Positions 9 to 61,763 of a stretch of DNA of 64,000 bases are shown here, piece by piece. The stretch lies in the NCBI GenBank assembly GCA_043805415.1, contig JAZDHZ010000021.1:8127-72126 (forward strand), given 5' to 3'. How positions within the stretch are numbered: position 1 is the stretch's first letter; each line of letters opens with the position of its first letter. The notes under the pieces were generated by a model. It ran no database searches, was not told where the DNA came from, and saw only the letters and a list, made by a program, of their open reading frames with translations. Made by a program: the position numbers and the translations under genes. Origin of the DNA: Candidatus Omnitrophota bacterium (lineage in GTDB: Bacteria; Omnitrophota; Gorgyraeia; B26-G9).

Positions 9-2972
9 GTGCCGGATACTGCGACTGCAATGGCACGGATCAGAGTGCTAGATGTGTCTGATGCTACGGTTTATGATGATTCAGATGCTAATTTCAGAAT
101 GCAGGGATTCTTTACTTTGAATCTGCCAAATGGCGGAGAATACTGGGTTGTCGGTACAGCGCATAATATTAATTGGACATGGGGCGGAACATTACCAAGC
201 GCGAAACTTTCTTATTCAACAGACAGCGGTATAACTTATCCTAATCTGATTAACGCGGCAGCTCCTAATGGCGTGGGCAGCGGCGGAACATTTAATTATT
301 CCTGGACCTTGCCGGATAATATTTCAACAAAAGTAAGAGTAAAAGTCGAAGATCCGAATGATAATACGGTATTTGATGTATCCAACGCGGATTTAACTAT
401 TGCCGGACAGATTATTGTTACCAGTCCAAATGGCGGAGAACGCTGGATAACCCGAGAATCTCACGCGATTACCTGGACAACATCCGGCACAATCCCAACT
501 GTTGATATCAAGTATTCTAAAGATAATTTCGTATCAAACATTAATACAGTTGTCACCGGCGCGGTTAATTCTAATTCATATGCCTGGAGCGTGCCGGATG
601 ATAGATCAGCTACAGTAAGAGTCAGAGTAATTGATCCGCGTGATCCAAGTAATACTTATGATGATTCAAACGCGAATTTTAGAATTGATTACTATACGAT
701 TTCGTTTGAAATCCGCGACTTGATTACTAATGAAGAATTATCAACTTTAACCGTGGATGCTTCATCTAATTTAGGTGATATCTGGGCAACAGCAACAATG
801 CCGGGTAATGCAGCCGCGCCTTTAGGTTCTCCAGTTACTGTTGACTTGCCGGCTGGTTTATGGACAGCAGTATGGTCAAAAGTCAGTTTTGGGGATAAAC
901 AGGCAAGCTTTGAAGTGAACGCGGATAAAGCAATAGACACTCTATATATGGAAACTACTGTAATCCATATCTGGCGCGCTTATTCTGAAGTTACTTATGA
1001 GGCAACAAATGATGTTCTAAAAGTAGCTTCCTGGTTAGAACGAGATGGATATGCTGTATCTGGCGCGGAAACAGTGTCGATTGATGTATATGATGATGAT
1101 GGTGTTTTGGTGCACAATATGTTTTCCAATACTCCTAATGCCGCGGGATTTTTCAACTTAAAATGGAATGCTCCCACAGGATTGCTGCCTTCAGTAGTGT
1201 ACACTTTGGTGACAAAAATCACCAATGCTTCAGGAGCTGAATTTAGGACTCCTGCTTCCTTCAATATTACGGAAACTCAGCAATTAGTCGCTACACAACT
1301 AGCAATGGAAAACATGCGTGATGTTACTTTGCCGGCTTTTCAGTCTGGGGTTGAAACAACGATTAATAACGGCATTGCTGAACAAAAAACACTGATTGAT
1401 ACTAAGATGACAGAGCAGACAAATATTATTGATACAAAAACAACGGAAATGAAAGAGTCAGTTGATGCGAGTATGACTGCTTTTGAAACAAGATCTCAGG
1501 TAGCAATTGATCAATTGCAGGAAGGTGCTGATCAGGCAACCGCGGCAGGTACAGAGCTTGAAACCATTGCCAAACGTCAATCCGGGGAACTTATTCTACC
1601 CACAAGCGTACTAACCGGGGGAACAGTTAATATCCGTTTTCGTATCGCTTCCGGGCTGATGCCGCTAATGGATGTAATTAGTTTTGACGGAACAATGCTT
1701 CGAAGCCAACAACCGCTTATTGAATCAAACAGTGTTGCCGGTTTGTATGGTTATGACCTATATATTGATGGTTCTCAGTTTAAGCCAGGTAAAGCGTTTA
1801 CAGTTGTTGTTACTGAAAATACAACCGGAAACCTGCAGGCTGGTTCAGTAATGGTTGAATCAACATCCTTAACCTCTATTGAAGGTTTGGCTTCTTCGAT
1901 TCCTCAGGTTAAATCTATCGCGGATTCGACTCTAGCAGCGGTTAACGCGTTGCAGAGCACATTGGCAACAGGCGGAGATGTCGGAAAGGCGCTTACTACT
2001 TTGCAGGATGCGGTGGATGAATTGCCATCATTGCTTGCCACAGAAGGACCAAGCGCGAAAATGGCTGAGGATATTAATGCTTTGATGGAGCGCTTAAAAG
2101 CTTTTGCCGGAGAAGAAGGATATGATATCTCGGCTATGGTTGAGGACGCATTGAGCAATTCTCCAACAATGAAGGAGATTAAGCTAAGAACAGAAAGCAT
2201 TAAGAGTGTGGTTAACTTCTTGCAGCAGTTATTTGAACATAAATTTGGAGGAATGGAAGAAGAACCAATGGTTTCAACATCGCTGTCAACTGGTAGTTTA
2301 ATTGTCAACGTGGTCGCGGCTAATCCATCCAGTACTGTATCTCAGGTAACGCAGGTAAAAGTTTATTTGCCCAAAGAAGTTACTCCCAATGATATTATGG
2401 ATACAGGCGGACTTGATGTTGAGTTTGACGCTAATCAATCAATATACTATGTCTACAAAGATAGAATTGAACTCGGGCCTAAAGAAGTTCGGGTATTCAA
2501 AGTTGAAATTGAGGATATCTGGATTATTCCGCAGACAGGTTTGGATGTAATGAAACTGCGGGCAACAAAACTCGCGAGCGCGTTAGAATCAACAGAATAT
2601 GCTCAAGATGGTGGAAAACTAGTTGACAAGGTTTATGCTGCTGTTGATGAAGTAATTGCTAAACAGAATGATATTACGCTAAGTCGCGAACAGCATATTG
2701 GTACTTATCGGGCGAACATCCTGATGATTGATAAATTAAAAACCGAGCTTAATGATATGGAAAAACTAATGATTGTTAATCCTGAAGAAACCGGCGCATT
2801 GTCAACGGCAATGACTTGGAAGATTATTATTATGGTGATCTTGTTTATCGGATTACTCGCGGTAGTATTCTTCTTTACCTGGTATCGCAAATCAGGGTTA
2901 ACTCAGGATGTTATTTCAAAAGCAAAACAGTTTTCTTTTCCCGAAGATGGAAAGGATCATAAAGAAAAATGA
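9..2972 (+). CDS. Large surface/cell-envelope protein, 5'-truncated at window edge. At least three tandem ~95-aa beta-sandwich repeats (PNGGExW...W.W/T..G...VRVRV.D), a long coiled-coil region, and a C-terminal TM anchor
   Basis: The repeat motif 'PNGGE(Y/R)W' plus 'SNA(D/N)F' recurs three times and the first copy is already partial at nt 9, so the gene continues upstream. Residues ~430-700 are heptad-like and Q/E/A/T-rich. The C-terminus has the hydrophobic stretch IIIMVILFIGLLAVVFFFTWY followed by basic residues. Confidence 0.6.
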   Translation: MPDTATAMARIRVLDVSDATVYDDSDANFRMQGFFTLNLPNGGEYWVVGTAHNINWTWGGTLPSAKLSYSTDSGITYPNLINAAAPNGVGSGGTFNYSWTLPDNISTKVRVKVEDPNDNTVFDVSNADLTIAGQIIVTSPNGGERWITRESHAITWTTSGTIPTVDIKYSKDNFVSNINTVVTGAVNSNSYAWSVPDDRSATVRVRVIDPRDPSNTYDDSNANFRIDYYTISFEIRDLITNEELSTLTVDASSNLGDIWATATMPGNAAAPLGSPVTVDLPAGLWTAVWSKVSFGDKQASFEVNADKAIDTLYMETTVIHIWRAYSEVTYEATNDVLKVASWLERDGYAVSGAETVSIDVYDDDGVLVHNMFSNTPNAAGFFNLKWNAPTGLLPSVVYTLVTKITNASGAEFRTPASFNITETQQLVATQLAMENMRDVTLPAFQSGVETTINNGIAEQKTLIDTKMTEQTNIIDTKTTEMKESVDASMTAFETRSQVAIDQLQEGADQATAAGTELETIAKRQSGELILPTSVLTGGTVNIRFRIASGLMPLMDVISFDGTMLRSQQPLIESNSVAGLYGYDLYIDGSQFKPGKAFTVVVTENTTGNLQAGSVMVESTSLTSIEGLASSIPQVKSIADSTLAAVNALQSTLATGGDVGKALTTLQDAVDELPSLLATEGPSAKMAEDINALMERLKAFAGEEGYDISAMVEDALSNSPTMKEIKLRTESIKSVVNFLQQLFEHKFGGMEEEPMVSTSLSTGSLIVNVVAANPSSTVSQVTQVKVYLPKEVTPNDIMDTGGLDVEFDANQSIYYVYKDRIELGPKEVRVFKVEIEDIWIIPQTGLDVMKLRATKLASALESTEYAQDGGKLVDKVYAAVDEVIAKQNDITLSREQHIGTYRANILMIDKLKTELNDMEKLMIVNPEETGALSTAMTWKIIIMVILFIGLLAVVFFFTWYRKSGLTQDVISKAKQFSFPEDGKDHKEK

Positions 2973-3100
2973 TTCCGAAAGTGCCTGCTTGGCCGCAGTC
3001 ATTTCGGACTAAATCCCCGCCAAAAAACGGCGGGATAAATCGCGCAGCAGGCTGACTTGACGTCACAAAAAACGTTCCGTAAGTCAGGCGCTCATTTAAG
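2971..3100 (+). ncRNA. Conserved structured 5'-UTR element, copy A (~130 nt), upstream of the F-type ATPase operon. Two stem-loops plus a ~30-nt inserted GC hairpin (ccccgcc...ggcggg)
   Basis: Near-identical to 39431-39530: gattCCGAAAgtgcCTGCttggccGCAGtcaTTTCGGactaaat, then gCTGACTTga..taAGTCAGgcgctcatttaa. The inner helix covaries between copies (ACG/CGT here, ATG/CAT in copy B). Lies between the ORF1 stop and atpC. Confidence 0.5.
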
Positions 3101-3119
3101 AAATAATAATGATTCCCGC

Positions 3120-3142
3120 AGGTGAAATCGAAAATCACCTGT
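3120..3142 (+). promoter_or_regulatory. Perfect 7-bp hairpin CAGGTGA-aatcgaaaa-TCACCTG followed by a G-rich RBS, immediately upstream of the atpC start
   Basis: Seen directly. Its loop (aaTCGAAaa) is shared with the hairpin at 39364-39385 that precedes copy B. Confidence 0.4.
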
Positions 3143-3157
3143 GGGGGGTAATATAGC

Positions 3158-3427: not shown

Positions 3428-3452
3428 GATTGATAAGGAAGGTTAATCTATT

Positions 3453-3671: not shown

Positions 3672-3801
3672 AAGCTGTAAACCAGAAAATAAATTTAGAT
3701 TTAAGTATGGGGGATCATTGCGATCAAATAATGACTTATGAATGATTTTTCGGTATAATAAAATTATTGATAAACTAATTGGATAACCATAGAGGTGCTA
3801 A

Positions 3802-6001: not shown

Positions 6002-6177
6002 AAACAATTTCTAATTACTAATTAATAATTTCTAATGGAGTTACTAAAAAGAAAAAAGATGCGAAAAATAATAGGCAAATAAGGAGTGTTTTGCTTTTGA
6101 ATTTTTTGATCAGGGATTTTTTAGGATTTAGAAATTAGATATTAGGAATTCTGGATGAGCAGGGGGGTGGCTTAGCG

Positions 6178-7020
6178 ATGATTCCAATAGCACAATTAAA
6201 AGGGGATATGGAATTTTACAGATCACTTGGTGGTTTGATTGAGGTTTTAAAGCTTGTGGCTGCTGCCCAGTATCAAATCCTGGAAAAAAAAATCAAAACT
6301 TATGGATTATATCTGGACGCTTTAAGCAATGTGTTCAGCTGGCTGGATATGCAACAAGTAAGACATCCTTTTGTTAGTGCCAGTGATAAGCCGACAGCGA
6401 TTGTGGCGATAACTACTGATGCCGGTCTATTGGGCGGGCTTAATTCTCTGGTTATGAATAAAGCGCTTGAGCAGGTTTCAAAAGACGATTGCCGGATGGT
6501 TATTGTCGGCAATCGCGGACAATTGTATGTTGAAAAACGGGAAATGATTTATGCTAATTTCCCTGGTGTTGATGATAATAAACGATTACAGCAGGCTTTA
6601 AAATTAAGAGATTATATTATTGAAAATGTTTTAAAAGGAAAATTCGGCAAGGTTATAATTGTTTTTCCGCGGGCTTTATCTTTTACTGTACAGCGGATAG
6701 AGGTGCTGCGGGTTTTTCCATTTGTTTGCGAAACAAAAAACCGTCTTACGAATTTACAGCTTTCTGATATTATCTTAGAATCAAAATTCGGAGATATCGT
6801 GGAACATTTGATTTATTTGTGGCTGGGACAGAAAATTTTTGAAATTTTCGGGATGGCAAGATTAGCGGAGCAGGCAGCAAGATTTATGCATCTTGAGAAA
6901 TGTACTGACCGGATTCAGGATCTGGATAAACAATTACGTTATAAATATTTTCGGGCAAAACATGAAATCATTGACCAAAACATGAGAGAGTTATTCGCGG
7001 CGAGGTTATTAAATGGCTAA
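6178..7020 (+). CDS. atpG: F-type ATP synthase gamma subunit
   Basis: Size (280 aa), position between alpha and beta, and gamma-like N- and C-terminal helices (LVAAAQYQ ... RELFAARLLNG). Confidence 0.75.
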   Translation: MIPIAQLKGDMEFYRSLGGLIEVLKLVAAAQYQILEKKIKTYGLYLDALSNVFSWLDMQQVRHPFVSASDKPTAIVAITTDAGLLGGLNSLVMNKALEQVSKDDCRMVIVGNRGQLYVEKREMIYANFPGVDDNKRLQQALKLRDYIIENVLKGKFGKVIIVFPRALSFTVQRIEVLRVFPFVCETKNRLTNLQLSDIILESKFGDIVEHLIYLWLGQKIFEIFGMARLAEQAARFMHLEKCTDRIQDLDKQLRYKYFRAKHEIIDQNMRELFAARLLNG

Positions 7021-8419
7021 TAATGCTTTAAGAAAAAACATAGTCGGCAGTGTTGTCGCCGTGCAGGGGCCGGTTGTTGATGTGCAGTTTAATAATCAGG
7101 CTGATGTGCCTAATGTTTTTGATGTTATTCATACTTTTACAATTGATGGACTGAGGGTAACTTTGGAAGTCGCGGAACATTCACCAGGCAATATTGCCCG
7201 GTGTATTTCGATTAATTCTACCCAGAATTTACAGCGTAATGCTCAGGCTTTTCCCACTGGGGGGGGCATTGAAATACCAGTTGGCGATGAAACCTATACC
7301 CGGTTGATGAATGTTATGGGTGAGCCGATAGACCAAAAAGGGCCGATAAAAGCTACAGAGACAAAACCAATACGGCTGGCGGCAAAGGGAACGCAGGTTA
7401 GTTTGAAAAAAGGCAGTAAAACAAGTTTTGAAATAATGGAAACAGGAATTAAAATTTTAGACCTGTTATTTCCCTTAGTAACCGGCAGTAAAAATGGTAT
7501 TCTCGGCGGCGCGGCTATGGGAAAAAGCGTGCTTACTCTGGAAATTATTCAGCATATTGTTAAAAGACATAAAGGTACTTGTGTGTTTACTGGTGCCGGA
7601 GAGCGTGTGCGTGAGGGAAATGAATTATATCATGAGCTTGCTCGCCATGATATTTTAGAAAAAATGAAAATTGTGTTTGGCCAGATGAATGAACCTCCGG
7701 GAGCGAGATATGAAGTGGCGATGACCGGGATTACTTTGGCTGAGAGCATTCAGCGTCAGAATAAAGATGTGCTTTTGTTTATCGATAATATCTTCCGATT
7801 CTTACAGGCTGGTCAAGAAATATCCACACTTTTAGGCCGAGTTCCGTCGGAAACCGGATATCAGCCGACCTTGATCTCAGAAGCCGCGGAATTCCATGAA
7901 CGCATTCGAACTTCTGAAGGAACCGGAGGTTCAATTACCTCTATCGAAGCAGTATATGTTCCGGCTGATGACTTGACAGATCCAGCGGTAGTCGCGATTT
8001 TTAGTTTTCTTGATTCAGTTATTGTACTTTCTCGTGAAAAAGTACAGCTCGGTCTTTACCCGGCAATTGACCCGCTGCTTTCATCTTGCGCGAATTTAGA
8101 CCCGGATATAGTGGGACAAAGACATTATAATGTTTCACAACAGGTATTGCAGTTATTTCAGCGATACGAAGAATTGCGTAAAATAGTTTTAGTTATTGGA
8201 ATTGACGAATTATCATCTCAGGACCGAACAATGTATGAACGTGCTCGTAAAATGCAGTTTTTTCTTACCCAGCCGTTTTCAGTGGCAGAAGCTTATACTG
8301 GCAGGCATGGAGAATATGTTGTATTGGAAGACACATTATCCAGCTGTGAGCGGATTATGAGCGGGGAATTTGACCAAAAACGAGAAGACTTATTTTATAT
8401 GATCGGCGCCCTTCATTAA
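7013..8419 (+). CDS. atpD: F-type ATP synthase beta subunit (divergent)
   Basis: P-loop GGAAMGKSV, DNIFRF.QAGQEIS..LGR.PS..GYQPTL, VPADDLTDPA and LYPAIDPL. Overlaps the gamma stop by 8 nt. Confidence 0.9.
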   Translation: MANNALRKNIVGSVVAVQGPVVDVQFNNQADVPNVFDVIHTFTIDGLRVTLEVAEHSPGNIARCISINSTQNLQRNAQAFPTGGGIEIPVGDETYTRLMNVMGEPIDQKGPIKATETKPIRLAAKGTQVSLKKGSKTSFEIMETGIKILDLLFPLVTGSKNGILGGAAMGKSVLTLEIIQHIVKRHKGTCVFTGAGERVREGNELYHELARHDILEKMKIVFGQMNEPPGARYEVAMTGITLAESIQRQNKDVLLFIDNIFRFLQAGQEISTLLGRVPSETGYQPTLISEAAEFHERIRTSEGTGGSITSIEAVYVPADDLTDPAVVAIFSFLDSVIVLSREKVQLGLYPAIDPLLSSCANLDPDIVGQRHYNVSQQVLQLFQRYEELRKIVLVIGIDELSSQDRTMYERARKMQFFLTQPFSVAEAYTGRHGEYVVLEDTLSSCERIMSGEFDQKREDLFYMIGALH

Positions 8420-8545: not shown

Positions 8546-10774
8546 ATGACTGCTATTGATATTATCGGAGCTGGAAAATTAATTATGGATAGAAAAATTG
8601 ATGCCCGGGTAATACGCCTGCTTAAAGAAAAAAAGAATTTAGATGAGGAAGATCTCAAAAATTGTTTTATTAAAGCGGAAAAAAAACAAAATTCTCCTAT
8701 TCCTGAAATAGCTGCTAGCACTCAAATCTCAGAAGTTGAATTGCTGGAAATAATTGCTGAGGATTTCCGCACCGAATATGTGGATTTACGCAATAGTTTA
8801 ATCGAGAAATCCTTGATCAAAAAAGTGCCGGTTAAAATCGCTGCCTATTATAAATTTGCTCCTTTAAGTATTGAAAATAGACTTTTGACAATTGCCCGGG
8901 CTTATCCGCTTGATATTAAAATACTTGATGAGATAAGAACGCATCTTGGTTATAGCGTAAAAGTAGTTTTAAGCACTGAGCAGGATGTTAATGAAATGCT
9001 TAAAAAATACTATGGTTTGGGAGCTTCGACTGTAGAAAAGATTATTGCCCAAAAGGCTTATGAGCATGTTACCAGCAAAAAAACCGATGATTTAGTTGAT
9101 GATCTTGAAGAAATCGGGGAGTCAACCTCTGTTATCCAGCTTGTTAACCAGATAATCCTTGAAGCTTACACAAAACGGGCAACAGATATTCATATCGAGC
9201 CGTATCGGAATAAACTGCGGCTGCGTTATCGGATTGATGGGATTCTTTATGATGCCAATGTATCTCCAGAGATAAATAATTTCCTTATTCCGATATTATC
9301 CCGGATCAAGCTCATGTCTAATTTGAATATTGTGGAAAAGCGTGTTCCCCAGGATGGCAGAGCGATTGTTCAAGTTCAAGGACAGACTGTTGATCTGCGC
9401 GTATCTTTTATTCCGACTCCTCATGGAGAGAGTGTGGTAATTAGAATATTGCCGACAGTTATGTTATTTGGCTTGGATAGATTAGGCTTAACCCCGGAAG
9501 AACTTGATTTTTTTAAAGAATTAATCAATAAGCCGCATGGAATTATTTTTGTTACCGGCCCTACGGGTAGTGGAAAAACAACAACGCTTTACGCGTGCTT
9601 ATCAAATATAAATACTAATGAGCGTAAAATAATAACCATTGAAGACCCGATTGAGTATGAGCTGGAAGGCATAACCCAAATCCAAATAACTCCGGAAGTG
9701 GGACTTGATTTTTCTCGGGGCCTTAGGAGCATGCTGCGTCATGATCCGGATGTTATGATGGTCGGAGAAGTAAGAGATTTGGAAACAGCGGAAATCGCGA
9801 TAAGAGTCGCGCTTACCGGTCATCTTGTTTTCTCAACATTACATACTAATGATGCTGCCAGCGGGATAACTCGGTTGATTGATATTGGGCTTGAACCTTA
9901 CCTGGTTGCCTCAAGTGTCGATGCTTTTATTGCCCAGCGTTTGCTCAGACTTAATTGTCCGCATTGTAAGGCTGAAGATACTCAGGTTGTGCCTGGGATA
10001 AAGGAACTGATATTAAGGGAACTTGGCAGAATCAATATTGAGGATATTAAGATCTATCGCAGTAAGGGTTGTCAGGCTTGTAATTTTACGGGTTTTTATG
10101 GAAGAACAGCAATTCATGAGATATTAGTGTTAAATGAGAAATTAAAAGCGCTTACATCGTCTAAAGCTTCAAGTGATGAAATTAAAAAATGCGCTGTATC
10201 AGATGGGATGAAGACATTACGTCAAAGCGGATGGCTAAAAGTGCTTGAAGGTGTGACAACCACTGATGAGGTTCTTAGAGTTACTCAGGCTGACGCGGTG
10301 CCAGATTATATGCGAGTATCCGAAGAGAAGGGATATGATTCAAGAACTGATGAAAAGCCATCTAAAATGCTTAGATTAGAGATTCCGAAACAGCCGGATA
10401 AAGCGGCTAAGCAAACTGATCAGCGGATTCATGAACGGATTGAAGATCAGTTATATGTTCACTATAAAATGTTTAAAACAAAGATAAAAGATTCTGGGGA
10501 AATAGAATACGAGCCAGAGCTTATTGGGGTTACTAAAAATATTAGCGCGGGCGGAGTATTATTAAATTCCGCGGAACAAATTTCTAAAGGAGTAATTCTT
10601 GATGTAAATATGGAAATGCCTCATGACGAAAGAAAAATAGAATGTCTGGCAAGGGTTATCCGCTGTACTGAGATTATTCCGAATAAGAATTATGAAATAG
10701 CGATTTGTTTTCTGGACTTAGCTAGTTCGGAAAGAAGCAGGCTTAATCGCTATATCAATAGAGTGAGCGCGTAA
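8546..10774 (+). CDS. GspE/PilB-family secretion ATPase with a C-terminal PilZ (c-di-GMP-binding type) domain
   Basis: N-terminal T2SE N-domain. Walker [14 protein letters not shown], Asp/His boxes, and tetracysteine motif CPHCK...CQACNFTG. The C-terminal ~110 aa carry RIHERIED (RxxxR) and NISAGGV ((D/N)xSxGG), which are the PilZ signatures. The start may instead be the ATG at 8585. Confidence 0.85.
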   Translation: MTAIDIIGAGKLIMDRKIDARVIRLLKEKKNLDEEDLKNCFIKAEKKQNSPIPEIAASTQISEVELLEIIAEDFRTEYVDLRNSLIEKSLIKKVPVKIAAYYKFAPLSIENRLLTIARAYPLDIKILDEIRTHLGYSVKVVLSTEQDVNEMLKKYYGLGASTVEKIIAQKAYEHVTSKKTDDLVDDLEEIGESTSVIQLVNQIILEAYTKRATDIHIEPYRNKLRLRYRIDGILYDANVSPEINNFLIPILSRIKLMSNLNIVEKRVPQDGRAIVQVQGQTVDLRVSFIPTPHGESVVIRILPTVMLFGLDRLGLTPEELDFFKELINKPHGIIFVTGPTGSGKTTTLYACLSNINTNERKIITIEDPIEYELEGITQIQITPEVGLDFSRGLRSMLRHDPDVMMVGEVRDLETAEIAIRVALTGHLVFSTLHTNDAASGITRLIDIGLEPYLVASSVDAFIAQRLLRLNCPHCKAEDTQVVPGIKELILRELGRINIEDIKIYRSKGCQACNFTGFYGRTAIHEILVLNEKLKALTSSKASSDEIKKCAVSDGMKTLRQSGWLKVLEGVTTTDEVLRVTQADAVPDYMRVSEEKGYDSRTDEKPSKMLRLEIPKQPDKAAKQTDQRIHERIEDQLYVHYKMFKTKIKDSGEIEYEPELIGVTKNISAGGVLLNSAEQISKGVILDVNMEMPHDERKIECLARVIRCTEIIPNKNYEIAICFLDLASSERSRLNRYINRVSA

Positions 10775-21755: not shown

Positions 21756-23432
21756 GTGATTTTCTCTGCTGGGGTAAAAATGCTGAATAAACAAAAAATG
21801 TTAAGCGAATTTCTTGAGGCCAAAGGAATCGCTAGTTATAATCAACTTGAGCAAGCTAAGCTAATTCAACAGCGTTTGCAAAAGAGTATTGGTCATATTC
21901 TTAATGATTTAGGCGTTGTTTATGATGATAATTTATCGCAGTTAATAATAGAAGAACTCGGCCTTACTTATGTTGATAGATTAAATTACTCTTTTGAAAA
22001 AAAAGTAATGGAATTAATCAATCCTTTCTTTGCTAAACGTTTCAGAATAATCCCCCTTAAATTAGAGGCGGATAACCTCCTGGTTGCTTTAGACGAACCG
22101 ATGAATTTTTTATCTTTAGAATATTTTTCTGATACTTTAAATATTAGGGTTGAAGCAGAACTAATAACAAAAAATCAGATGGATGATTTGCTCAATACCT
22201 ATTACCAGGCTGAGGAAGATACAACTATCGCGGAAAATTATCTGCCGCCTTCGGATAATACATATAAAGAAGACGATGCTCCGGTTATTCAGTTAGTCAG
22301 TATGCTGATTTCAGATGCTTATCAAAAAAGAGCAAGTGATATACATATTGAGCCCATGTATGATTCTCTAAGAATTCGTTATCGAATTGACGGAGTGCTA
22401 AGACAAGTTCAATCCCCGGATAAAAATTTACAATCTCCAATCATTAGCAGAATAAAGTTAATGGCCGGGCTGAATATAGCTGAGAAAAGGTTGCCACAAG
22501 ATGGCAGAATTAGAACCACAGTAAATAATAAGGAATTTGATTTGAGAATTTCAACTCTTCCGGCGCATTATGGAGAGAGTGTTGTATTGCGCATACTGGA
22601 CAGAAGAGTTATTACAATTGAAGAAATGGGCTTTTCGCCAGCGCAGATACAAAGTTTTAAAAATATTGTTAAAATGCCGAATGGGATAATTCTGGTAACC
22701 GGGCCTACCGGAAGCGGGAAAAGCACAACTCTTTATGGGGTGTTAAACAGTATAAATAGATCAAAGAAAAAGATATTAACGGTTGAAGATCCGGTGGAAT
22801 ATCAGATAAACGGCATAAATCAGGTTCAGGTGAAAACGAAAATTGGATTAAGTTTTGCCCTGGTTTTAAGATCAATGCTAAGACAAGCTCCAGACATTAT
22901 CATGGTCGGAGAAATAAGAGATCTGGAAACAGCGAGAATCGCTGTGCAATCAGCGCTAACCGGGCATCTGATTTTTAGTACCCTGCATACAAATGACGCG
23001 CCAAGTGCCGTAGCGAGAATTGTGGATATGGGAATTAAGCCGTACCTTGTAGGAGCTACTTTACAAGCTGTCTTAGCTCAGAGATTGATCAGACTGCTTT
23101 GTCCGGATTGTAAACAATCGTACAAACCGCCAAAAGATGAAATTAGAATTCTGGAGATTGATCCAGACAGTGATCTTAGTATTTTTAAAGCAAAAGGATG
23201 CAATCTTTGCGCCCATACGGGTTATCTCGGACGTACTGGAATTTTTGAGCTTTTAATGGTAGATGAAAAAATTAGGCGTTTAGCTGGTGAGAATGTTTCG
23301 AGCAGTGTGATTAGAGAGCAGGCAAGAGCATCAGGAATGACTACCTTAAAAGAACATGCCAGAGATAAAGTTTTGCAGGGATTGACTACCTTTCAAGAAC
23401 TTGTTAGGGTTACGCAAAGTGATGTTGATTAA
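21756..23432 (+). CDS. PilB/GspE-family assembly ATPase (paralog 2)
   Basis: GPTGSGKSTTLY, CPDCK...CNLCAHTGY. The probable true start is the ATG at 21780 (MLNKQK), preceded by GGGG. Confidence 0.9.
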   Translation: MIFSAGVKMLNKQKMLSEFLEAKGIASYNQLEQAKLIQQRLQKSIGHILNDLGVVYDDNLSQLIIEELGLTYVDRLNYSFEKKVMELINPFFAKRFRIIPLKLEADNLLVALDEPMNFLSLEYFSDTLNIRVEAELITKNQMDDLLNTYYQAEEDTTIAENYLPPSDNTYKEDDAPVIQLVSMLISDAYQKRASDIHIEPMYDSLRIRYRIDGVLRQVQSPDKNLQSPIISRIKLMAGLNIAEKRLPQDGRIRTTVNNKEFDLRISTLPAHYGESVVLRILDRRVITIEEMGFSPAQIQSFKNIVKMPNGIILVTGPTGSGKSTTLYGVLNSINRSKKKILTVEDPVEYQINGINQVQVKTKIGLSFALVLRSMLRQAPDIIMVGEIRDLETARIAVQSALTGHLIFSTLHTNDAPSAVARIVDMGIKPYLVGATLQAVLAQRLIRLLCPDCKQSYKPPKDEIRILEIDPDSDLSIFKAKGCNLCAHTGYLGRTGIFELLMVDEKIRRLAGENVSSSVIREQARASGMTTLKEHARDKVLQGLTTFQELVRVTQSDVD

Positions 23433-23705
23433 AAGCAAGAGAACAGAAAAAAGAAGGTCACAAGGACACAAAGTCACCAGGTCACAAGGATGGAAAGACG
23501 AAAAAGCAGAAAAGCTAAAAGCGCTTGACTGATGGCAAAAATTCTCTTTGAGCGGCGCTTTCGAACGTAATTTTGACAGGGATGTCAAAATAGAGAGAAC
23601 GCGCGGCTGGGCCTGCACGATGCAGGCTCAGGCTTAGCGAAAAGACGTGTTTTTGCCTAATACACACGACGTGCGACGCAATACTTAAAAAAGGGAGGAT
23701 AAATT

Positions 23706-24770
23706 ATGGGAGATATTGGTGAATTATTACAGCTTTGTGTTAAGCATAATGCCTCAGATATGCATTTAACTGTGGGAAAGCCTCCAACGCTGCGTATTGA
23801 CGGAGCATTGATGTCTTTAAATTATGATCCGCTTGGGCATGAAGATACTGAAGCGCTGATGAAGTCAATCACAAGTAATGATAATCAAAGGCGGATTCAG
23901 GAAGTCGGCGGTGTTGATTTTGGTTTTGCTTTTGAGAAAATAGCCAGGTTTCGGGTGTCTGTTTATAAACAAAAAGGCCATTATGGTTTAACTTTGCGCT
24001 TAATCCCAACTCATTTGTTGAGTTTTCAAGAAATTGGAGTTAGTAATGTAGTCAAGCAGTTGCTCTATCGTCCTAGAGGGTTAATTCTCGTTACCGGCCC
24101 TACTGGATCGGGGAAAACCACGACTATGGCGACAATGACTGATTTTATCAATACTGAACGCGACGCGCATATCATTACTATCGAAGATCCAATTGAGTAT
24201 TATCATACGCATAAAAAAGGGATTATTACCCAGCGGGAATTAGGCGTGGATGTTCCGAGTTTTAGTGAAGCGTTGATTAAAGGCTTGCGCCAGAATCCGG
24301 ATGTAATTTTAGTTGGAGAAATGAGAGACTTGGCAACTATTGAAGCGGCAATTTTAGCCGCGGAAACAGGGCATTTGGTTATGGCTACTTTGCATACAAC
24401 CAGCGCGGCAAGAACCGTTGACCGGATAATCGATGTTTTTCCGCCCAATCAACAGGAGCAGATCCGCACCCAATTGTCGACATCAATTTTAGCGGTTATT
24501 TCTCAGCAATTAATTGTTAAAGCTTCAGGCAGGGGAAGAATCGCGGCTTTTGAAATTATGATTAATACCGCCTCAATCCAAAACCTGATAAGAGAGAAGA
24601 AAACATACCGAATAACTTCGGATTTGCAGACTGGAGCAAAGTATGGGATGCGGACATTTGATTCCTCTTTATTTGAATTGTACACAAATGGAATAATCCG
24701 CTCTGAGGACGCGATTGATAAGGCTTTTGATCAGGATGGGATGCGGGCTAAAGTTGAAGGTAAACTCTAA
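23706..24770 (+). CDS. pilT: Twitching-motility retraction ATPase PilT
   Basis: 354 aa, [27 protein letters not shown], and no N-terminal GspII domain. Confidence 0.9.
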
Positions 24771-24789: not shown

Positions 24790-26517
24790 TTGTTTATTCA
24801 GGAAGAAAATATGAGCAGCGGATTTAAATTTAAAACAATAGGCAATATTTTACAAGAACGCGGATTTATCAGCAAAGCTGATTTAAAAGAAGGCCTAGAG
24901 AGTCAAAAGGTAAGCGGTCTTCCTTTGGGTAAGATTCTGGTTAATCTGGGTTTTATTACAGAAGGACAATTGCTTAATGCCTTAGGCATTCAAGCTAAAC
25001 TGGAAACTGTTGATCTTGAGCAATTTTCTATTCCTTCCGAGGTTTTAGATAAAATCCCGGGTTCGATTGCTCGGCTTTATAATATTCTTCCGCTTAGTTT
25101 TGAATCAGGGGTGCTCTCAATAGCGACTTCTGATCCGTTCAATTTTAGCATAATCGACGATTTGCGTTTCATGTTTAATTATAATATTAAAGCTAAAATT
25201 GCTACGCGGATTAGTATTGCTGACGCAATCAAAAGATACTATGGATCCGATGTGGAAAGTGTTGATGAAATATTTTCTGAGATAAGTAATAATATTCCAG
25301 AGCTTATTGAAGAAGCCGCAAGAGCGGATAATATTGAAGAACTTTCCGCGCAGCTGCCGATTGTAAAATTGATTAATCTGATACTTATCCAAGCAATTAA
25401 AAAGAAAGCTTCGGATATTCATTTTGAACCTTTTCAGGATGAATTTAAAATACGCTATCGCCTAGACGGTGTGCTTTATGATATTGTTTCCCCGCCAAAA
25501 GTTTTGCATGTGGCAATCAGCTCTAGGATTAAAGTTATGGCAAATTTAAACATAGCGGAAACAAGGTTGCCTCAGGACGGAAGGACTTTAGTTAGAATTG
25601 CCGGACGCATGGTCGATATGCGAGTATCAACATTGCCGACTATTTTTGGGGAAAGTGTTGTTATTAGGATATTAGATAAAGCTACTGTTCAATTGTCGCT
25701 GGATGATTTGGGGTTTAAGGAAGATGTTAAAAATAAGATATATTCGCTGATTAAAAAACCTTATGGCATTATCTTAAGCACCGGGCCGACAGGATGCGGA
25801 AAAACAACGACTCAGTATTCAGCTTTGAGTCAGATAAATACAATTGAACAAAAAATAATTACAGTTGAAGATCCGGTGGAATTTGATTTGCCGGGTTTAA
25901 TCCAGGTTTCAGTGCGGCCTAAAATTAATTTTACATTTCCCGTAGCCTTGCGCCATATCCTTAGGCAGGATCCGGATATAATTATGGTCGGAGAAATCCG
26001 CGATACCGAGACCGTGCAAATGGCGATTCATGCTTCTTTAACCGGGCATCTTGTCTTTTCCACATTGCATACTAATGATGCTCCCAGCGCGGTAACCAGG
26101 CTTATTGATATGGGGGTTGAGCCTTTTTTAATCGCTTCCGCGGTGGAGGCAATTTTAGCGCAAAGACTTGTGCGCTGTATTTGTTTAAATTGTAAACAAG
26201 CTTATACTCCGACAAAAAAAGAGCTGGATGAAGCAGGCATTGAGCCGGAAGAAATAGAAAATAAAAAATTCTATAAAGGTATGGGGTGTGGTCAGTGTAA
26301 TAATTCAGGCTATAGAGGCAGATTGGGAGTTTTTGAGTTAATGGTGTTTGATGAGGATTTGCGTTCAATGATTCTTGATCGATCAACGGTTGGGGAATTG
26401 AGAAATCAGGCAATAAAAAATGGAATGCGGACATTAAGGAAAGACGCGTTATTAAAAGTATGCGATGGCTTAACCACCTTAGAAGAGTTGGTTAATATAA
26501 GTTCTAATTATTCATAA
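24790..26517 (+). CDS. PilB/GspE-family assembly ATPase (paralog 3) with N-terminal GspII-type domains
   Basis: GPTGCGKTTTQY, CLNCKQ...CGQCNNSGY. Confidence 0.9.
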   Translation: MFIQEENMSSGFKFKTIGNILQERGFISKADLKEGLESQKVSGLPLGKILVNLGFITEGQLLNALGIQAKLETVDLEQFSIPSEVLDKIPGSIARLYNILPLSFESGVLSIATSDPFNFSIIDDLRFMFNYNIKAKIATRISIADAIKRYYGSDVESVDEIFSEISNNIPELIEEAARADNIEELSAQLPIVKLINLILIQAIKKKASDIHFEPFQDEFKIRYRLDGVLYDIVSPPKVLHVAISSRIKVMANLNIAETRLPQDGRTLVRIAGRMVDMRVSTLPTIFGESVVIRILDKATVQLSLDDLGFKEDVKNKIYSLIKKPYGIILSTGPTGCGKTTTQYSALSQINTIEQKIITVEDPVEFDLPGLIQVSVRPKINFTFPVALRHILRQDPDIIMVGEIRDTETVQMAIHASLTGHLVFSTLHTNDAPSAVTRLIDMGVEPFLIASAVEAILAQRLVRCICLNCKQAYTPTKKELDEAGIEPEEIENKKFYKGMGCGQCNNSGYRGRLGVFELMVFDEDLRSMILDRSTVGELRNQAIKNGMRTLRKDALLKVCDGLTTLEELVNISSNYS

Positions 26518-37863: not shown

Positions 37864-39285
37864 GTGAGGGAGTCTATGAAGCCACAAAAAACAGAAAGAC
37901 CAGAAAGACCAGAAAGACCAAAGCCAACTAGAGCAGATAGCAATTCGCGTTATCCGACACATAACTCTAGACCAAAGCAACTGATACAACCTGAGCGCCG
38001 CCCAGTTGAAAAACACCAGACTGATGGAGGGATCTATATTGGTGAACTTAAAAAAATGAGTGGTTCAGGGTTGATAAAAATAGCAAAAGATTTGAAAATT
38101 GCCGGAATAAGCGGAGTTCGCAAACAAGATCTTATTTTTAAAATTTTGCAAGCTCAGGCTGAAAAAGCCGGGAATATGTTTGGTGAAGGAATATTGGAAA
38201 TACTTCCCGATGGATTTGGTTTTTTAAGATCACCGAACTATAATTATTTGCCTTGTCCGGATGATATTTACATTTCTCCTAGTCAAATAAGAAAATTCAA
38301 TTTAAAAACCGGGGATACGGTCAGCGGTCAGATTCGTCCTCCCAAAGAAGGCGAGCGCTATTTTGCCTTATTAAAGGTTGAAGCGGTTAATTTTGAAGCC
38401 CCGGAAAAAGTAAAAGACAAAATCCTGTTTGATAACTTAACTCCGCTTTATCCTGAAGAGCGCTTAATTCTGGAAACAGATTCAGAAGATGTATCAACGA
38501 GAATTATGGATTTATTAACTCCGATTGGAAAAGGACAGCGAGGTTTGATTGTTGCGCCGCCTTATAGCGGAAAGACTGTTTTACTGCAGAAAATAGCAAA
38601 CAGTATTATTACGAATAATGAGGATGTGGTGCTTATTGTTCTTTTAATTGATGAGCGTCCGGAAGAAGTTACTGACATGCAGCGTTCAGTTAAGGCAGAA
38701 GTTATCAGCTCTACTTTCGATGAACCGCCGGAAAGGCATGTGCAGGTCGCGGAAATTGTTTTAGAAAAAGCAAAACGATTGGTTGAATGCGGCAGAGATG
38801 TAGTTATATTATTAGATAGTATAACCCGTTTGGCTCGGGCCCATAATACGGTTGTTCCTCATTCCGGGAAAATCTTATCCGGCGGTGTGGATTCCACTGC
38901 TTTGCAAAAACCAAAGCGGTTTTTCGGCGCTGCCCGCAATATTGAAGAAGGCGGGTCATTGACAATCCTCGCTACAGCATTGATTGATACCGGAAGCCGG
39001 ATGGATGAAGTTATATTCGAAGAGTTTAAGGGTACTGGAAATATGGAATTGCAGCTTGATCGTAATTTGTTTCAAAGAAGGATTTATCCAGCAATTGATA
39101 TTAAACGTTCTAATACGCGTAAAGAGGAATTATTGGTTGATCCGGAAGAATTAAAACTTATTTGGATTTTGCGCAAAGCTTTGAATGAGCTAAGCAGCGT
39201 GGAGGCAATGGAACTGCTTAGTACTAAACTTAAGAAAGTGGCAACAAACGCGGAATTCTTGCTTTCATTGGCTAAAAATAGATAA
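37864..39285 (+). CDS. rho: Transcription termination factor Rho with a ~60-aa low-complexity N-terminal extension
   Basis: [16 protein letters not shown]; the C-terminus matches the Rho tail pattern. The N-terminus contains a (PER)x3 tandem 9-nt repeat at 37895-37921. Confidence 0.95.
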
Positions 39286-39326: not shown

Positions 39327-39355
39327 TTGACGAAAAGCCTATTTTCTGGTAGAAT
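39327..39355 (+). promoter_or_regulatory. Promoter TTGACG-N17-(TGg)TAGAAT driving the element-rpmE-prfA transcript
   Basis: ttgacg aaaagcctattttctgg tagaat, with an extended -10 TG. Confidence 0.5.
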
Positions 39356-39363
39356 TTCTAGTT

Positions 39364-39385
39364 CACAATCGAAGATGTGAACAAG
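39364..39385 (+). promoter_or_regulatory. Hairpin GTTCACA-atcgaaga-TGTGAAC in the 5' leader
   Basis: 7-bp stem. The loop matches that of the 3120-3142 hairpin. Confidence 0.35.
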
Positions 39386-39430
39386 CGTAAGATGTGTAGC
39401 AATACAAGACATTTATGATGTAAATAATAA

Positions 39431-39530
39431 TGATTCCGAAAGTGCCTGCTAGGCCGCAGCCATTTCGGACTAAATTCGCGTGGCTGACTTGATGTCGCAC
39501 AAATGCTCCATAAGTCAGACGCTCATTTAA
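39431..39530 (+). ncRNA. Conserved structured 5'-UTR element, copy B (~100 nt), immediately upstream of the rpmE RBS
   Basis: Collinear with 2971-3100 minus the inserted hairpin. Stems CCGAAAgtg/caTTTCGG, CTGC/GCAG and CTGACTT/AAGTCAG are retained. The inner helix ATG/CAT differs compensatorily from copy A's ACG/CGT. Confidence 0.5.
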
Positions 39531-39742
39531 AGGGAGGGAAAATGAAGAATAAAATACATCCAGAATACAAACAAAGCACAATAACTTGTGCCTGTGGTGA
39601 GGTAATGAATACAAGCAGTACCAAACAAGATATCCGTGTGGAAATATGCAGCAGCTGCCATCCTTTTTATACTGGCAAACAAAAATTACTTGATACCGCT
39701 GGAAGAGTGGAACGATTCAAGAAAAGATATGCTAAACAATAG
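39503..39742 (+). CDS. rpmE: Ribosomal protein L31 (C-x-x-C zinc-ribbon type)
   Basis: [10 protein letters not shown]...CACGEV...[13 protein letters not shown]. Confidence 0.9.
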
Positions 39743-40858: not shown

Positions 40859-41332
40859 ATGATTACTTATTGCACCAAGGGGTGCGATTTTTTTATAAAA
40901 TATTACATGAGGCTGAAAGTGAAATTTACTAAATATGGGTTTTTAATAATCCTAGGTTTATTTTTCATGTTGGTATTAGCCAATAAAGGGCTCACTGAGA
41001 ATATGAATAATTCTGGCTCAGATAGAGTTATTTTTGAACAGCCCATCTCTTATGACGATGTTCTGAAAATGAAAGAAAAAGTCGAACAACTCGAAAAAGA
41101 ACAAAAAGAGAAGAATCCTGGAGCAATCGATCCTATGGGTAATAGTAATAGCTCTGATGAAAACTCTAAAATGCTTATAATGCTTAAAGCATTACTCAGT
41201 GCAATGGGCATAGATGCACCGGAAGATATGCCATTACCGGAAACAGACAATGCCCAAAGTAAAGATACAAATAACTTTAAACAGTGGGGAGCCCAGCACA
41301 ACTGGAAGGGTTTAAGCATTGAGCAAAGATAA
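40859..41332 (+). CDS. Small exported/anchored hypothetical protein inserted between prfA and prmC
   Basis: Hydrophobic segment YGFLIILGLFFMLVLA (likely start at M 40907), followed by a low-complexity acidic tail. Confidence 0.4.
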   Translation: MITYCTKGCDFFIKYYMRLKVKFTKYGFLIILGLFFMLVLANKGLTENMNNSGSDRVIFEQPISYDDVLKMKEKVEQLEKEQKEKNPGAIDPMGNSNSSDENSKMLIMLKALLSAMGIDAPEDMPLPETDNAQSKDTNNFKQWGAQHNWKGLSIEQR

Positions 41333-42265: not shown

Positions 42266-43523
42266 AATTATTATTGAAGGCGGAGTTCCTTTAAAAGGCA
42301 ATATTGTAGTTAGTGGTGCTAAAAACGCGGCATTGCCGATTCTTGCCGCTACTTTGCTGACTGAAGAAAAATGTATTATTAAAAACGTGCCTGTGCTCAG
42401 GGATGTTCTGACTATGCTTAGAATCCTGCGCAGTTTGGGAGTTAAAACCCAAATGCAAGGCAATAAAGTAATTATCGAGCCAAAAAAATGCAAAAGCTAT
42501 GTTGCTGACTATAAATTAGTCAGTACTATGCGTGCTTCAATTTGTGTTTTAGGTCCTTTGTTAGCTAAGCAAAAACAGGCAAAAGTATCAATGCCGGGCG
42601 GATGTATTATTGGCCAAAGACCAGTTGATTTGCATATAAAAGGTTTACGCGCGCTTGGGGCAAAAATTAAGATTGAGCATGGTTATATTGAAGCGCGGGC
42701 TAAACAATTGCGCGGGGCTAATATTTTCCTGGGCGGGGCATATGGTTCTTCAGTGCTGGCGACATCTAATGTGCTTATGAGCGCGGTTTTAGCTAAAGGA
42801 ACAACCTTAATTGAAAACGCGGCTTGTGAGCCGGAGATTGTTGATCTGGCAAATTTTTTAATTAAGATGGGCGCGAAGATAAAAGGTCAGGGAACTCCGC
42901 TGCTTAGTATTGATGGGGTTAAGCGGTTAAATGGTGCTACTCATACAGTTATCCCGGATCGTATCGAAGCTGGAACTTTTATCCTGGCGGCGGTAATTAC
43001 CGGAGGCGACCTGATTATTGAAAAAGCCCGGGCTGATCATTTGTCAGCGCTGTTTGATAAATTAAAGCAGATTGGGGTTTCAATTACTGTCCGCGGCGAC
43101 TGTATTCATGTTAAAAGAAAAACAGCGCTATTAAAGCCTGTGGACATAACTACCTTACCTTATCCGGGTTTTCCTACGGATATGCAGGCACAAATGATGG
43201 CAGTAGCAGCGGTTAGTGACGGAATTAGTGTGTTGACGGAAAAGATATTCCCAGACAGGTTTATGCATGTTAGCGAATTGAATCGTATGGGAGCAGGAAT
43301 TTTTTTAGAAGGAGCAAGCGCGATTGTCAAAGGCGTAAAACGTTTAAGCGGCGCGCCGGTTATGGCTTCTGATCTAAGAGCTTCCGCGGCGCTGATTTTA
43401 GCAGGCTTGGTTGCTAAAGGGAAAACCGAAGTTTCTCGGATTTATCATTTAGATCGAGGGTATGATAAAATTGAAGAAAAATTGCAGAAAGTCGGAGCAA
43501 AGATTAAAAGAGTAAAAGAATAA
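42258..43523 (+). CDS. murA: UDP-N-acetylglucosamine 1-carboxyvinyltransferase
   Basis: MDKIIIEGG.PLKG...SGAKNAALPILAA, and the EPSP-synthase fold length. Confidence 0.95.
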   Translation: MDKIIIEGGVPLKGNIVVSGAKNAALPILAATLLTEEKCIIKNVPVLRDVLTMLRILRSLGVKTQMQGNKVIIEPKKCKSYVADYKLVSTMRASICVLGPLLAKQKQAKVSMPGGCIIGQRPVDLHIKGLRALGAKIKIEHGYIEARAKQLRGANIFLGGAYGSSVLATSNVLMSAVLAKGTTLIENAACEPEIVDLANFLIKMGAKIKGQGTPLLSIDGVKRLNGATHTVIPDRIEAGTFILAAVITGGDLIIEKARADHLSALFDKLKQIGVSITVRGDCIHVKRKTALLKPVDITTLPYPGFPTDMQAQMMAVAAVSDGISVLTEKIFPDRFMHVSELNRMGAGIFLEGASAIVKGVKRLSGAPVMASDLRASAALILAGLVAKGKTEVSRIYHLDRGYDKIEEKLQKVGAKIKRVKE

Positions 43524-43545
43524 ATTTAAAAAGGGAGGTGAAATA

Positions 43546-61620: not shown

Positions 61621-61763
61621 CGGACAGCGTTTAGCGAATAGAAAAAGCAGGAAAAAGTTATCGAGTTAACGCGTTTACGTGTTTGCGGGTTAAAAAATAA
61701 AATCAGTTAGTTTTTTACGCAATACGCGATACGCACGACGCAATACGAAACAGAGGATCAATC

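Follow-up and report, generated by a model that had tools for sequence, protein, structure and literature searches.

The element considered here lies at positions 39,423 to 39,530 of a 64,000-nucleotide stretch of DNA (the window; contig JAZDHZ010000021.1, assembly GCA_043805415.1) from a Candidatus Omnitrophota bacterium, in the spacer between rho and the operon rpmE-prfA-prmC. We propose that this element, called copy B, probably belongs to an undescribed family of interspersed modular hairpin repeats resembling BOX, BIME and Rickettsia palindromic elements (RPE), and that it is co-transcribed with the operon rather than being the sensor of a ligand. Initial annotation of the window had noticed a second copy of the element (copy A) in front of an ATP synthase operon and had taken this pairing as the mark of a global signal. 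The reading we favor rests on the number and dispersal of the copies, on their modular composition, on the wide variety of genes that follow them and on the presence of filled and empty orthologous sites.

A dispersed repeat family

The window is part of a Candidatus Omnitrophota genome put together from a metagenome. An exact look-up gave no record of its L31 protein, and relatives of the window were found via Rho homologues instead. Over 417 residues the window's Rho is 100% identical to a protein of a metagenome-assembled genome of Candidatus Omnitrophota. The closest relatives are all Omnitrophota, and the gene order coaE-rho-rpmE-prfA-prmC-murA is kept in them. Loci and contigs of related DNA, 569 kb in total, were fetched and are designated by L-numbers. 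A covariance model built from ten copies finds 112 matches in these 569 kb, corresponding to 93 distinct contexts, 90 distinct sequences and 80 distinct arrays. The window contains just two arrays, plus a weak partial unit. When one genome per species was scanned with the exact pattern of the first hairpin (HP1), 11 matches on many contigs were obtained, all in two Omnitrophota metagenome-assembled genomes (MAGs). A degenerate pattern of the second hairpin (HP2) matched 62 metagenome stretches and gave no match in viral contigs; origin in a phage was therefore rejected.

Rfam 15, with its L31 leaders and riboswitches, has no match at gathering threshold across the whole window. Scans by E-value of both copies and of GC-rich and divergent variants returned only unrelated matches at chance level, and a full-text literature search found nothing relevant on intergenic or palindromic repeats of Omnitrophota or Omnitrophica. 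The best reading is that the repeat family was previously undescribed and belongs to a clade of Candidatus Omnitrophota.

Anatomy of the repeat unit

One unit measures about 100 nt and consists of a head, HP1, a linker, an optional GC hairpin, HP2 and a tail. Copy B is one complete unit. The features of its locus, with the Shine-Dalgarno sequence abbreviated as SD, are these:

39285, plus strand: 3' end of rho
39327..39355, plus strand: sigma-70-type promoter of rpmE-prfA-prmC; -35 TTGACG (39327-39332), 17-nt spacer, extended -10 TGgTAGAAT (39347-39355)
39361-39367 and 39376-39382, plus strand: 7-bp hairpin GTTCACA / TGTGAAC with 8-nt loop, seen in the sequence and in the minimum free energy (MFE) fold
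39423..39530, plus strand: copy B, one complete repeat unit; covariance model match of 127.6 bits, E ~1e-28; parts in order are A/U-rich head AATAATAATGA, HP1, linker ACTAAATTCG, extended HP2 and tail CTCATTTAA
39435..39469, plus strand: HP1 of copy B, TCCGAAA-G-TG-C-CTGC / loop TAGGCC / GCAG-C-CA-TTTCGGA
39471..39529, plus strand: extended HP2 of copy B, recovered independently by MAFFT and RNAalifold; 5' half TAAAT / TC loop / GCGT / GG bulge / CTGACTT / bulged G / ATG / TC loop / GC; 3' half GC / TC / CAT / AAGTCAG / ACGC / TC / ATTTA
39532..39538, plus strand: SD of rpmE, GGGAGGG, adjoining the TTTAA tail of the element
39542..39742, plus strand: rpmE (L31, 66 aa), ATG at 39542; Pfam PF01197
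39747-40817, plus strand: prfA; Pfam PF03462 and PF00472

Copy A stands near the beginning of the window and is followed by a second, partial unit, which the covariance model matches weakly (3102-3195):

2962..3099, plus strand: copy A, complete unit with an extra GC hairpin between HP1 and HP2; covariance model match of 74.5 bits
3016-3021 and 3029-3034, plus strand: GC hairpin of copy A, CCCGCC / GGCGGG
3102..3145, plus strand: partial unit after copy A; head AATAATAATGATTCC and variant hairpin CCCGCAGGTGA / TCACCTGTGGG; exact head-motif match
3160-3164, plus strand: SD GGAGG
3176-3427, plus strand: atpC

The A/U-rich head often holds the stop codon of the upstream gene. At copy A, for example, the TGA stop (2970-2972) of the upstream 987-aa open reading frame (ORF) is the TGA within the head AATGATTCC. 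The stem of HP1 varies freely between lineages, and its apex GCTAGGYCGC is often kept. After the linker comes the optional GC hairpin (CCCGCC...GGCGGG). The core of HP2, GGCTGACTTGACGTC...TCCGTAAGTCAGG, is near-invariant even among copies of GC-rich lineages, and the unit ends with a tail of the form YRCTCATTTAA. In HP1 and HP2 alike, a 7-bp stem is separated by a bulged G from a short stem, beyond which lie an internal loop and the apical stem.

These modules occur in several combinations. Units follow one another head to tail in tandem arrays of up to three, in which the internal units lack the tail; the near-identity of tandem units points to recent duplication. HP2 with its tail stands alone in the atpA-atpG spacer of L046 and at a stop codon in L044, and HP1 with the GC hairpin stands alone before a P-II gene in L005. 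In some copies HP1 is replaced by unrelated hairpins. The rho-rpmE site of L065 carries a different HP1 variant together with a GC hairpin, unlike the window and L001. Such a mosaic of head, repeated unit and tail is the design of interspersed repeats like BOX and BIME, and not that of an aptamer.

Covariation of the two hairpins

The two-hairpin structure is real. Standard pairs make up 95.7% of cells in the model-fitted alignment; the figure is 81.5% when columns are shuffled and 21-40% when partners are slid. Changes on both sides are seen in 31 of the 34 pairs (330 cells). All 13 pairs of HP1 have changes on both sides across the family. In helices 2-5 of HP2, 94-98% of cells are paired and double changes occur in 18 of 21 pairs. 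Because a model-fitted alignment leans towards its model, the test was repeated with plain MAFFT and RNAalifold. On the MAFFT alignment of 38 diverse copies, RNAalifold recovered the entire extended HP2 and the apex of HP1, with 14 of 24 pairs compensatory; the helices of HP2 are TAAAT/ATTTA, GCGC/GCGC, CTGACTT/AAGTCAG, ACG/CGT and GC/GC. The tail thus pairs with TAAAT of the linker, and this pairing covaries in L034 and L071. A stem closing head upon tail (AAUGA/UCAUU) was considered and rejected, since L004, L009 and L011 disrupt it and show no compensating change.

The copies in L034 (2263-2395) and L071 (415-552, minus strand) are peculiar in other respects as well. Both lie on GC-rich contigs and are followed by a strong intrinsic terminator. 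A conserved 70-aa gene without a Pfam family starts 18 nt away in the divergent direction. In the lower HP2 of these copies, Watson-Crick pairs take the place of the internal UC/UC loop. The element could be a stand-alone small RNA at these loci, or an antisense insertion in the leader of the 70-aa gene.

The pattern of substitutions bears on another explanation, in which a short ORF (MIPKVPARPQPFRTKF...) beginning at the ATG of AATGATTCC encodes a small peptide or leader peptide and controls the downstream gene through its translation. Both window copies contain the short ORF, and the same frame is read through where a copy is inserted inside a protein-coding gene (see below). But substitutions in the family track base-pairing and not codons, and both differences between copies A and B in their shared part change an amino acid. 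Further, the ATG is replaced by AGG, ACG or TTG in several copies and no SD precedes it. The ends of the ORF vary, a 1-nt indel breaks it in copy B, and stops in the HP2 loop interrupt it in many copies. We regard translation of such a peptide as scarcely credible.

Genomic context of the copies

The position of the 80 arrays between genes is regular. The downstream neighbor lies on the strand of the element in 60 of 65 cases and the upstream neighbor in 61 of 68. The array ends no more than 25 nt from the start of an ORF in 33 of 60 cases when ORFs of at least 90 aa are considered (more if the small L31 and S16 genes are counted), and begins no more than 25 nt from the upstream stop codon in 28 of 61. 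The usual layout is a stop codon, one or more elements ending in CTCATTTAA, GGAGG and a start codon, and most terminal units show this juxtaposition of tail and GGAGG.

By Pfam, the downstream genes belong to at least 25 unrelated families. Housekeeping functions are represented by L31, S16, L9, the epsilon and gamma subunits of ATP synthase, GroEL and triosephosphate isomerase (TIM). Metabolic enzymes include FabZ, AccA, PlsX, SAICAR synthase (PurC), IMPDH/GMP reductase, ketol-acid reductoisomerase (KARI), lumazine synthase and AdoHcy hydrolase. There are also two P-II paralogues, the ammonium transporter AmtB, an epimerase, a LolA-like protein, ferredoxin-domain (Fer4) and flavin-reductase proteins, nucleases, secreted proteins and several proteins without a family. 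A complete tRNA-Ser follows directly after the element in L018 (2603 onward) and L048. Some copies are found at the 3' ends of genes, a few are antisense, and some are followed by other repeated palindromes. The downstream genes form no coherent pathway; ATP synthase and rpmE are two draws from a long list. The element probably precedes both operons because of its copy number and not because of shared regulation.

The tRNA-Ser context has a curious counterpart in L014 (~440-457, minus strand), where no more than the first 15 nt of tRNA-Ser (GGAGAGGTCGCATAG) stand behind the element before unrelated DNA begins. The truncated gene could be a scar of integration at a tRNA gene.

Copy A itself lies upstream of the genes for ATP synthase epsilon, c, b/delta, alpha, gamma and beta, as identified by Pfam. 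It is 90% identical to copy B across a 60-nt core, a likeness far beyond chance. The order of this F-type cluster (3176-8419) is unusual: epsilon, c, a b/delta fusion (OSCP domain fused to B), alpha, gamma, beta. The a-subunit gene (atpB) is absent from it, and the gap of 130 nt between c and b (3672-3801) is non-coding.

Filled and empty sites

Several orthologous spacers carry the element in some genomes and lack it in others. The rho-rpmE spacer contains it in L001, whose Rho is 97% identical to that of the window, and does not contain it in L002 (94%) and L003 (91%), where promoter and SD are kept. Orthologous copies of copy B are present in L001 (94% identical) and in L065. Two sites are empty in the window and occupied in relatives:

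43516..43545, plus strand: empty murA-rpsP spacer; the orthologous spacer has two units in L006 and one in L065
20804..20910, plus strand: empty spacer upstream of tpiA, with unrelated hairpins; the ortholog in L007 has a full unit

The genome with the 97%-identical Rho carries two units and one unit at these two sites, respectively, and Pfam confirms the identities of S16 and TIM. The atpA-atpG spacer is another orthologous site filled in some relatives and empty in others. Comparison of L044 with L009 reveals a clean junction, GG[CTGAC...GCTCAT]TTAA, at which the insertion provides a new stop codon.

One site lies within a gene. An ORF of more than 1045 aa contains the element in frame, in the sole frame free of stops, in L063, L020, L042 and L070; these four contigs represent one site. 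Eight homologues from other Omnitrophota align continuously across it, and the extra 40-45 residues occur only in L063 and L020, so that the insertion stands opposite eight homologues without it.

Judged from the sequences, these comparisons show copy B to have been inherited from the common ancestor of the window genome and L001. They likewise show the units to have spread at the level of DNA. Through insertion, duplication and recombination the units have entered short spacers flanked by co-directional genes, and there they are tolerated.

Copy B in the leader of rpmE-prfA-prmC

Rho, L31, PrfA, PrmC and MurA are all confirmed by Pfam around copy B. The initial annotation had placed a promoter, a 7-bp hairpin, the element and the SD of L31 in this order, and we find them so, with coordinates within one base. 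The promoter fits 10 of 12 consensus positions plus the TG. A promoter scan returned 2 sites where 1.8 are expected, which alone is not significant; despite this chance-level result we accept the promoter as real because it is conserved in relatives. It is kept base for base, and nearly so together with the hairpin, in the rho-rpmE spacers of L001 and L065. The spacer of L003, which has no element, contains a promoter TTGACG-16-TGgTATAAT at the equivalent place, and L002 likewise has an equivalent promoter. The hairpin GTTCACA/TGTGAAC, which L001 and L065 also conserve, lies outside the repeat family, and a variable linker of 40 nt separates it from copy B.

Transcription would start near 39360-39362. 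The mRNA of rpmE would therefore open with the 7-bp hairpin and carry the element in its leader, so copy B is a predicted part of the rpmE-prfA-prmC leader, between the conserved promoter and the SD of L31. This much of the earlier claim about copy B, its position, holds as a prediction; the step from position to regulation does not. No intrinsic terminator on the plus strand accompanies the element. In the MFE fold and the RNAalifold consensus there is no conserved alternative pairing that sequesters the SD, which lies outside every conserved helix. A candidate internal promoter in HP2 (TTGACG) was dismissed: it has no usable -10 at 16-18 nt and is not listed by the promoter scan.

We suggest the following scenario. 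The ancestor of the window genome and two relatives would have gained a unit between the pre-existing promoter of rpmE and its SD, and because of this position the unit would be co-transcribed in the leader. With less confidence, we presume that the RNA folds autonomously into two stable hairpins and leaves the SD free, and that the element, if it acts at all, would be a generic structural module without signal transduction. It might, for example, protect or define mRNA ends, serve as a processing hairpin or insulate the ribosome-binding site from upstream context.

What, then, of a global signal? The initial annotation had suggested energy charge, an ion or an alarmone. Spelled out as a model, the element would be a riboswitch-like aptamer for a global small molecule or ion (Mg2+, Na+, ppGpp, ATP/ADP and the like), co-regulating ATP synthase, ribosomal proteins and other genes of growth. 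Such an aptamer would account for the two-hairpin architecture, the covarying stems and the conserved unpaired nucleotides. Many of the downstream genes are indeed related to growth (ribosomal proteins, fatty-acid and purine synthesis, ATP synthase), and many copies, some in tandem, before diverse genes is how GEMM once looked. Nevertheless, an aptamer of this family would have to be divisible: its modules are separate, HP1 is replaceable and either hairpin occurs without the other. The structure covaries as that of a riboswitch should, but it does not form an indivisible unit before a coherent set of genes, and there is no expression platform, as neither a terminator nor a structure sequestering the SD is present and the SD lies unpaired beside the tail. 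Internal units of tandem arrays have no tail, copies occur in frame inside an ORF and before tRNA, and Rfam gave no riboswitch match. The same genes exist without the element in near relatives, whose rho-rpmE sites are empty, and the rpsP and tpiA sites are empty in the window itself. The presence of the same element upstream of the ATP synthase operon is thus borne out (copy A), while the global signal deduced from the pairing with rpmE lacks support in view of at least 25 unrelated downstream families. A riboswitch of this kind is very improbable. A broad post-transcriptional role of the element is possible; nothing points to ligand sensing.

Points against a passive repeat

Our proposal that copy B belongs to a family of interspersed repeats has to be weighed against several observations that do not favor it. 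Firstly, the usual marks of mobility, such as a MITE (a non-autonomous derivative of a DDE transposon) would bear, were not clearly seen. Comparisons of filled and empty sites gave no consistent target-site duplication. There are no convincing terminal inverted repeats, only a terminal complementarity of 5-6 bp (AAATGA/TCATTT) that does not covary and that 3 of 12 seed copies disrupt with no compensating change. Searches by tblastn with transposase sequences detected one ORF of the Y1_Tnp type (REP-associated tyrosine transposase, RAYT), on L036, a contig with four copies of the element, and no Y1 transposase in the window or at other loci. At the loci covered, no link of the family to a transposase was found.

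These results also bear on a more specific explanation, according to which the element is a REP or a non-autonomous element of IS200/IS605 type. A Y1 (HUH) transposase such as RAYT would recognize its hairpins in single-stranded DNA. Insertion beside a TTAA-like site would be strand-specific, which would explain why orientation is biased and why the right junction (...CTCAT|TTAA) is constant. Subterminal hairpins at both ends, together with the lack of consistent target duplication and of long inverted repeats, are consistent with it. So is the right junction, which is always ...CTCAT followed by TTAA or TAA, with left flanks that vary, and so is the transposase ORF on the contig of four copies. 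That ORF, however, is not flanked by the element, and the 11 loci around its homologues contain no copy, for which reasons RAYT/Y1 transposase was rejected as the mobilizer. Further, TTTAA covaries with the internal TAAAT (L034, L071) and hence belongs to the element and not to a target site. Copies consisting of HP2 only exist, and strong conservation of old orthologous copies is unexpected for inert non-autonomous elements. Mobilization of this type seems improbable to us, though less so than ligand sensing.

The RAYT-type genes themselves (~196 aa) have neighbors unconnected to the hairpin element. On L036 (10936-12841) the gene stands beside a gene of an rve-family integrase, and on L075-L079 such genes stand beside giant RHS/Tc-toxin-like genes (SpvB, TcdB_toxin_midN, RHS_repeat).

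Secondly, individual copies are more constrained than we would expect of passive repeats. Identity within the element is 90-100% for 8 of 9 orthologous pairs, as against 76-92% for the 300-nt flanks, which are mostly coding. When a copy is compared with 62 others, its best match is usually its ortholog. The rpmE copies of the window and L001 differ at 7 positions, of which one compensatory pair (U-A vs C-G) lies in a helix and the rest in loops, a bulge or a mismatch position. Because elements outconserve their flanks and orthologues differ in loops or by compensation, the comparison indicates that individual copies are probably under purifying selection, unexpected for a purely passive passenger. 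The near-invariance of the HP2 core across lineages, in copies of 37-61% GC, suggests sequence-specific recognition by some factor. Further, copies are in near-universal sense orientation with the tail abutting the SD. On the sense strand G-U pairs number 70 and A-C mismatches 38, a modest hint that this strand may be the one that folds.

Given the constrained copies, the near-invariant HP2 and the strict sense orientation, we keep a domesticated RNA operator as a serious rival. HP1-HP2, and above all the HP2 core, would then be the binding or cleavage site of a trans-acting RNA-binding protein or RNase III-like ribonuclease, and a post-transcriptional regulon or processing system would extend over dozens of housekeeping cistrons, rpmE and atp included. 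The greater constraint on orthologous copies than on their flanks agrees with this, as do the HP2 preserved among lineages of differing GC content, with its bulged G and UC/UC internal loops conserved, the tail directly beside the SD, the excess of G-U over A-C on the sense strand and the common layout of HP1 and HP2. On the other hand, no candidate partner protein was identified, and an operator is hard to reconcile with copies in an ORF, before tRNA, at gene 3' ends and, for a few copies, in antisense orientation. The sites of close relatives are filled or empty without change of the gene, and the composition of modules differs even at a single site (rho-rpmE). We consider such an operator unlikely, though clearly the strongest competitor of the interspersed-repeat reading.

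A narrower version of it is about as doubtful, if not slightly more so. A mobile module might have been domesticated by the host so that the invariant HP2 core, set just 5' of the SDs of dozens of housekeeping cistrons, acts as operator or cleavage site. A single RNA-binding protein or ribonuclease would recognize it in trans; a small molecule in that role is less likely. If this were true, one factor would co-ordinate translation or mRNA processing of genes for ribosomal proteins, ATP synthase, chaperonin, lipid and nucleotide synthesis, and the regulon would have been assembled through transposition-like spread of the operator across this Omnitrophota clade.

Significance

The interspersed-repeat reading removes a false lead, namely a leader common to ATP synthase and L31 operons that resembles a riboswitch for a global signal. 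For an uncultivated and little-studied phylum it also puts on record a repeat family, with a covariance model and a well-supported structure. Strict sense orientation, placement in spacers from stop codon to SD, a near-invariant core across GC-diverse lineages and probable purifying selection are traits unusual among interspersed repeats. With this combination the family may be a good test case of the way selfish repeats come to belong to operon mRNAs, and of their possible recruitment to mRNA processing or control of translation. In practice, such repeats break metagenome assemblies and may pass for regulatory motifs in comparative screens.

Other repeats and neighboring genes

Several repeat families are stacked in the intergenic regions visited by the hairpin element. 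A perfect palindrome, TTGTTCCACGTGGAACAA, stands directly behind the tail of the element at three related loci (L012 ~2700-2718, minus strand; L072; L031), and repeats of the GAAGGACG type follow further on in L012 and L016. Short repeats of the GCGATTAGCG/TATAGCG type lie behind the element in L019 and L072. The window itself has a second intergenic repeat at 23650-23694 and 61712-61756, rich in ACGCAATAC / CGACGCAATAC. Its two copies are 71% identical and lie just upstream of genes starting at 23706 and 61764.

Four paralogous secretion ATPases of the T2SSE/PilB/PilT type are encoded within 18 kb of the window (8546-10774, 21756-23432, 23706-24770 and 24790-26517). Three of them have MshEN domains, and the first has a C-terminal PilZ (c-di-GMP-binding) domain. 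The window repeat families D1-D3 are due to these four paralogues. Nearly every long ORF of the window (1-64000) is on the plus strand, and orientation of the element relative to genes is therefore inseparable from orientation relative to replication using the window alone.

Around copy B, the longest ORF of Rho (37864-39285, 473 aa, GTG start) is N-terminally longer by ~56 residues than the 417-aa annotated Rho of related MAGs; the true start is probably internal to it. Between prfA and prmC lies a 157-aa ORF without a Pfam family (40859-41332). L001 and L002 have ORFs of 143-155 aa, likewise without a family, at the same position, and in L003 there is none and prfA abuts prmC.

Comparison with known systems

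The systems compared here are BOX, REP/BIME, RPE, Correia/ERIC and GEMM. The Omnitrophota element shares with interspersed repeats its many dispersed, mostly intergenic copies, their hairpin mosaics and tandems, and orthologous sites that are filled or empty.

Before its ligand was known, the GEMM/c-di-GMP-I riboswitch was seen as a motif in many copies, sometimes in tandem, before diverse genes. The Omnitrophota element is similar in its two adjacent covarying hairpins, its many copies, some tandem, and its functionally diverse downstream genes. Riboswitch aptamers, however, are indivisible and come with an expression platform, whereas here the modules are separable, HP1 is replaceable, there is no platform, and copies occur in an ORF and before tRNA.

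Correia elements of Neisseria and ERIC/IRU elements of enterobacteria are co-transcribed long hairpins of ~100-150 nt, which can be cut by RNase III or can alter the stability and expression of their neighbors. The Omnitrophota element is like them in size, predicted co-transcription and folding into hairpins. They have clear terminal inverted repeats, occur in both orientations and, in the case of Correia, duplicate TA; the Omnitrophota element has only its 5-6 bp of non-covarying terminal complementarity and no consistent duplication.

RPE of Rickettsia are ~100-150 bp long, intergenic and also found in frame within protein-coding genes, to which they add a peptide segment. The in-frame insertion in L063 and L020 is a direct parallel. 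The differences are that only one in-frame site is found here, that most Omnitrophota copies are intercistronic and sense, and that no relationship of sequence exists.

REP and BIME of enterobacteria and pseudomonads are associated with RAYT transposases and stabilize mRNAs within operons, and long-term vertical persistence has been proposed for REPINs. They too are imperfect palindromes that combine with linker motifs into mosaics, lie between genes and are transcribed. At 20-40 nt, however, REPs are shorter; they are mostly located 3' of genes and often arranged as inverted pairs. A RAYT gene flanked by REPs is typical there, whereas the corresponding link, a cognate Y1 gene flanked by the repeats, was looked for among the fetched loci and not found.

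BOX elements of Streptococcus pneumoniae have the structure boxA-boxB(n)-boxC; they are ~100-200 nt long, intergenic, present in many copies, co-transcribed and without a transposase of their own. The Omnitrophota element has, likewise, a head module, a tandem middle module of variable number and a tail, a stable predicted fold, a dispersed occurrence and predicted co-transcription. BOX is from another phylum, and similarity of sequence is not expected. In contrast to BOX, the Omnitrophota element is nearly always sense, typically extends exactly from a stop codon to the next SD, and has orthologous copies that outconserve flanking genes. Taken together, the Omnitrophota element most resembles BOX, BIME and RPE, with unusually strict placement and conservation.

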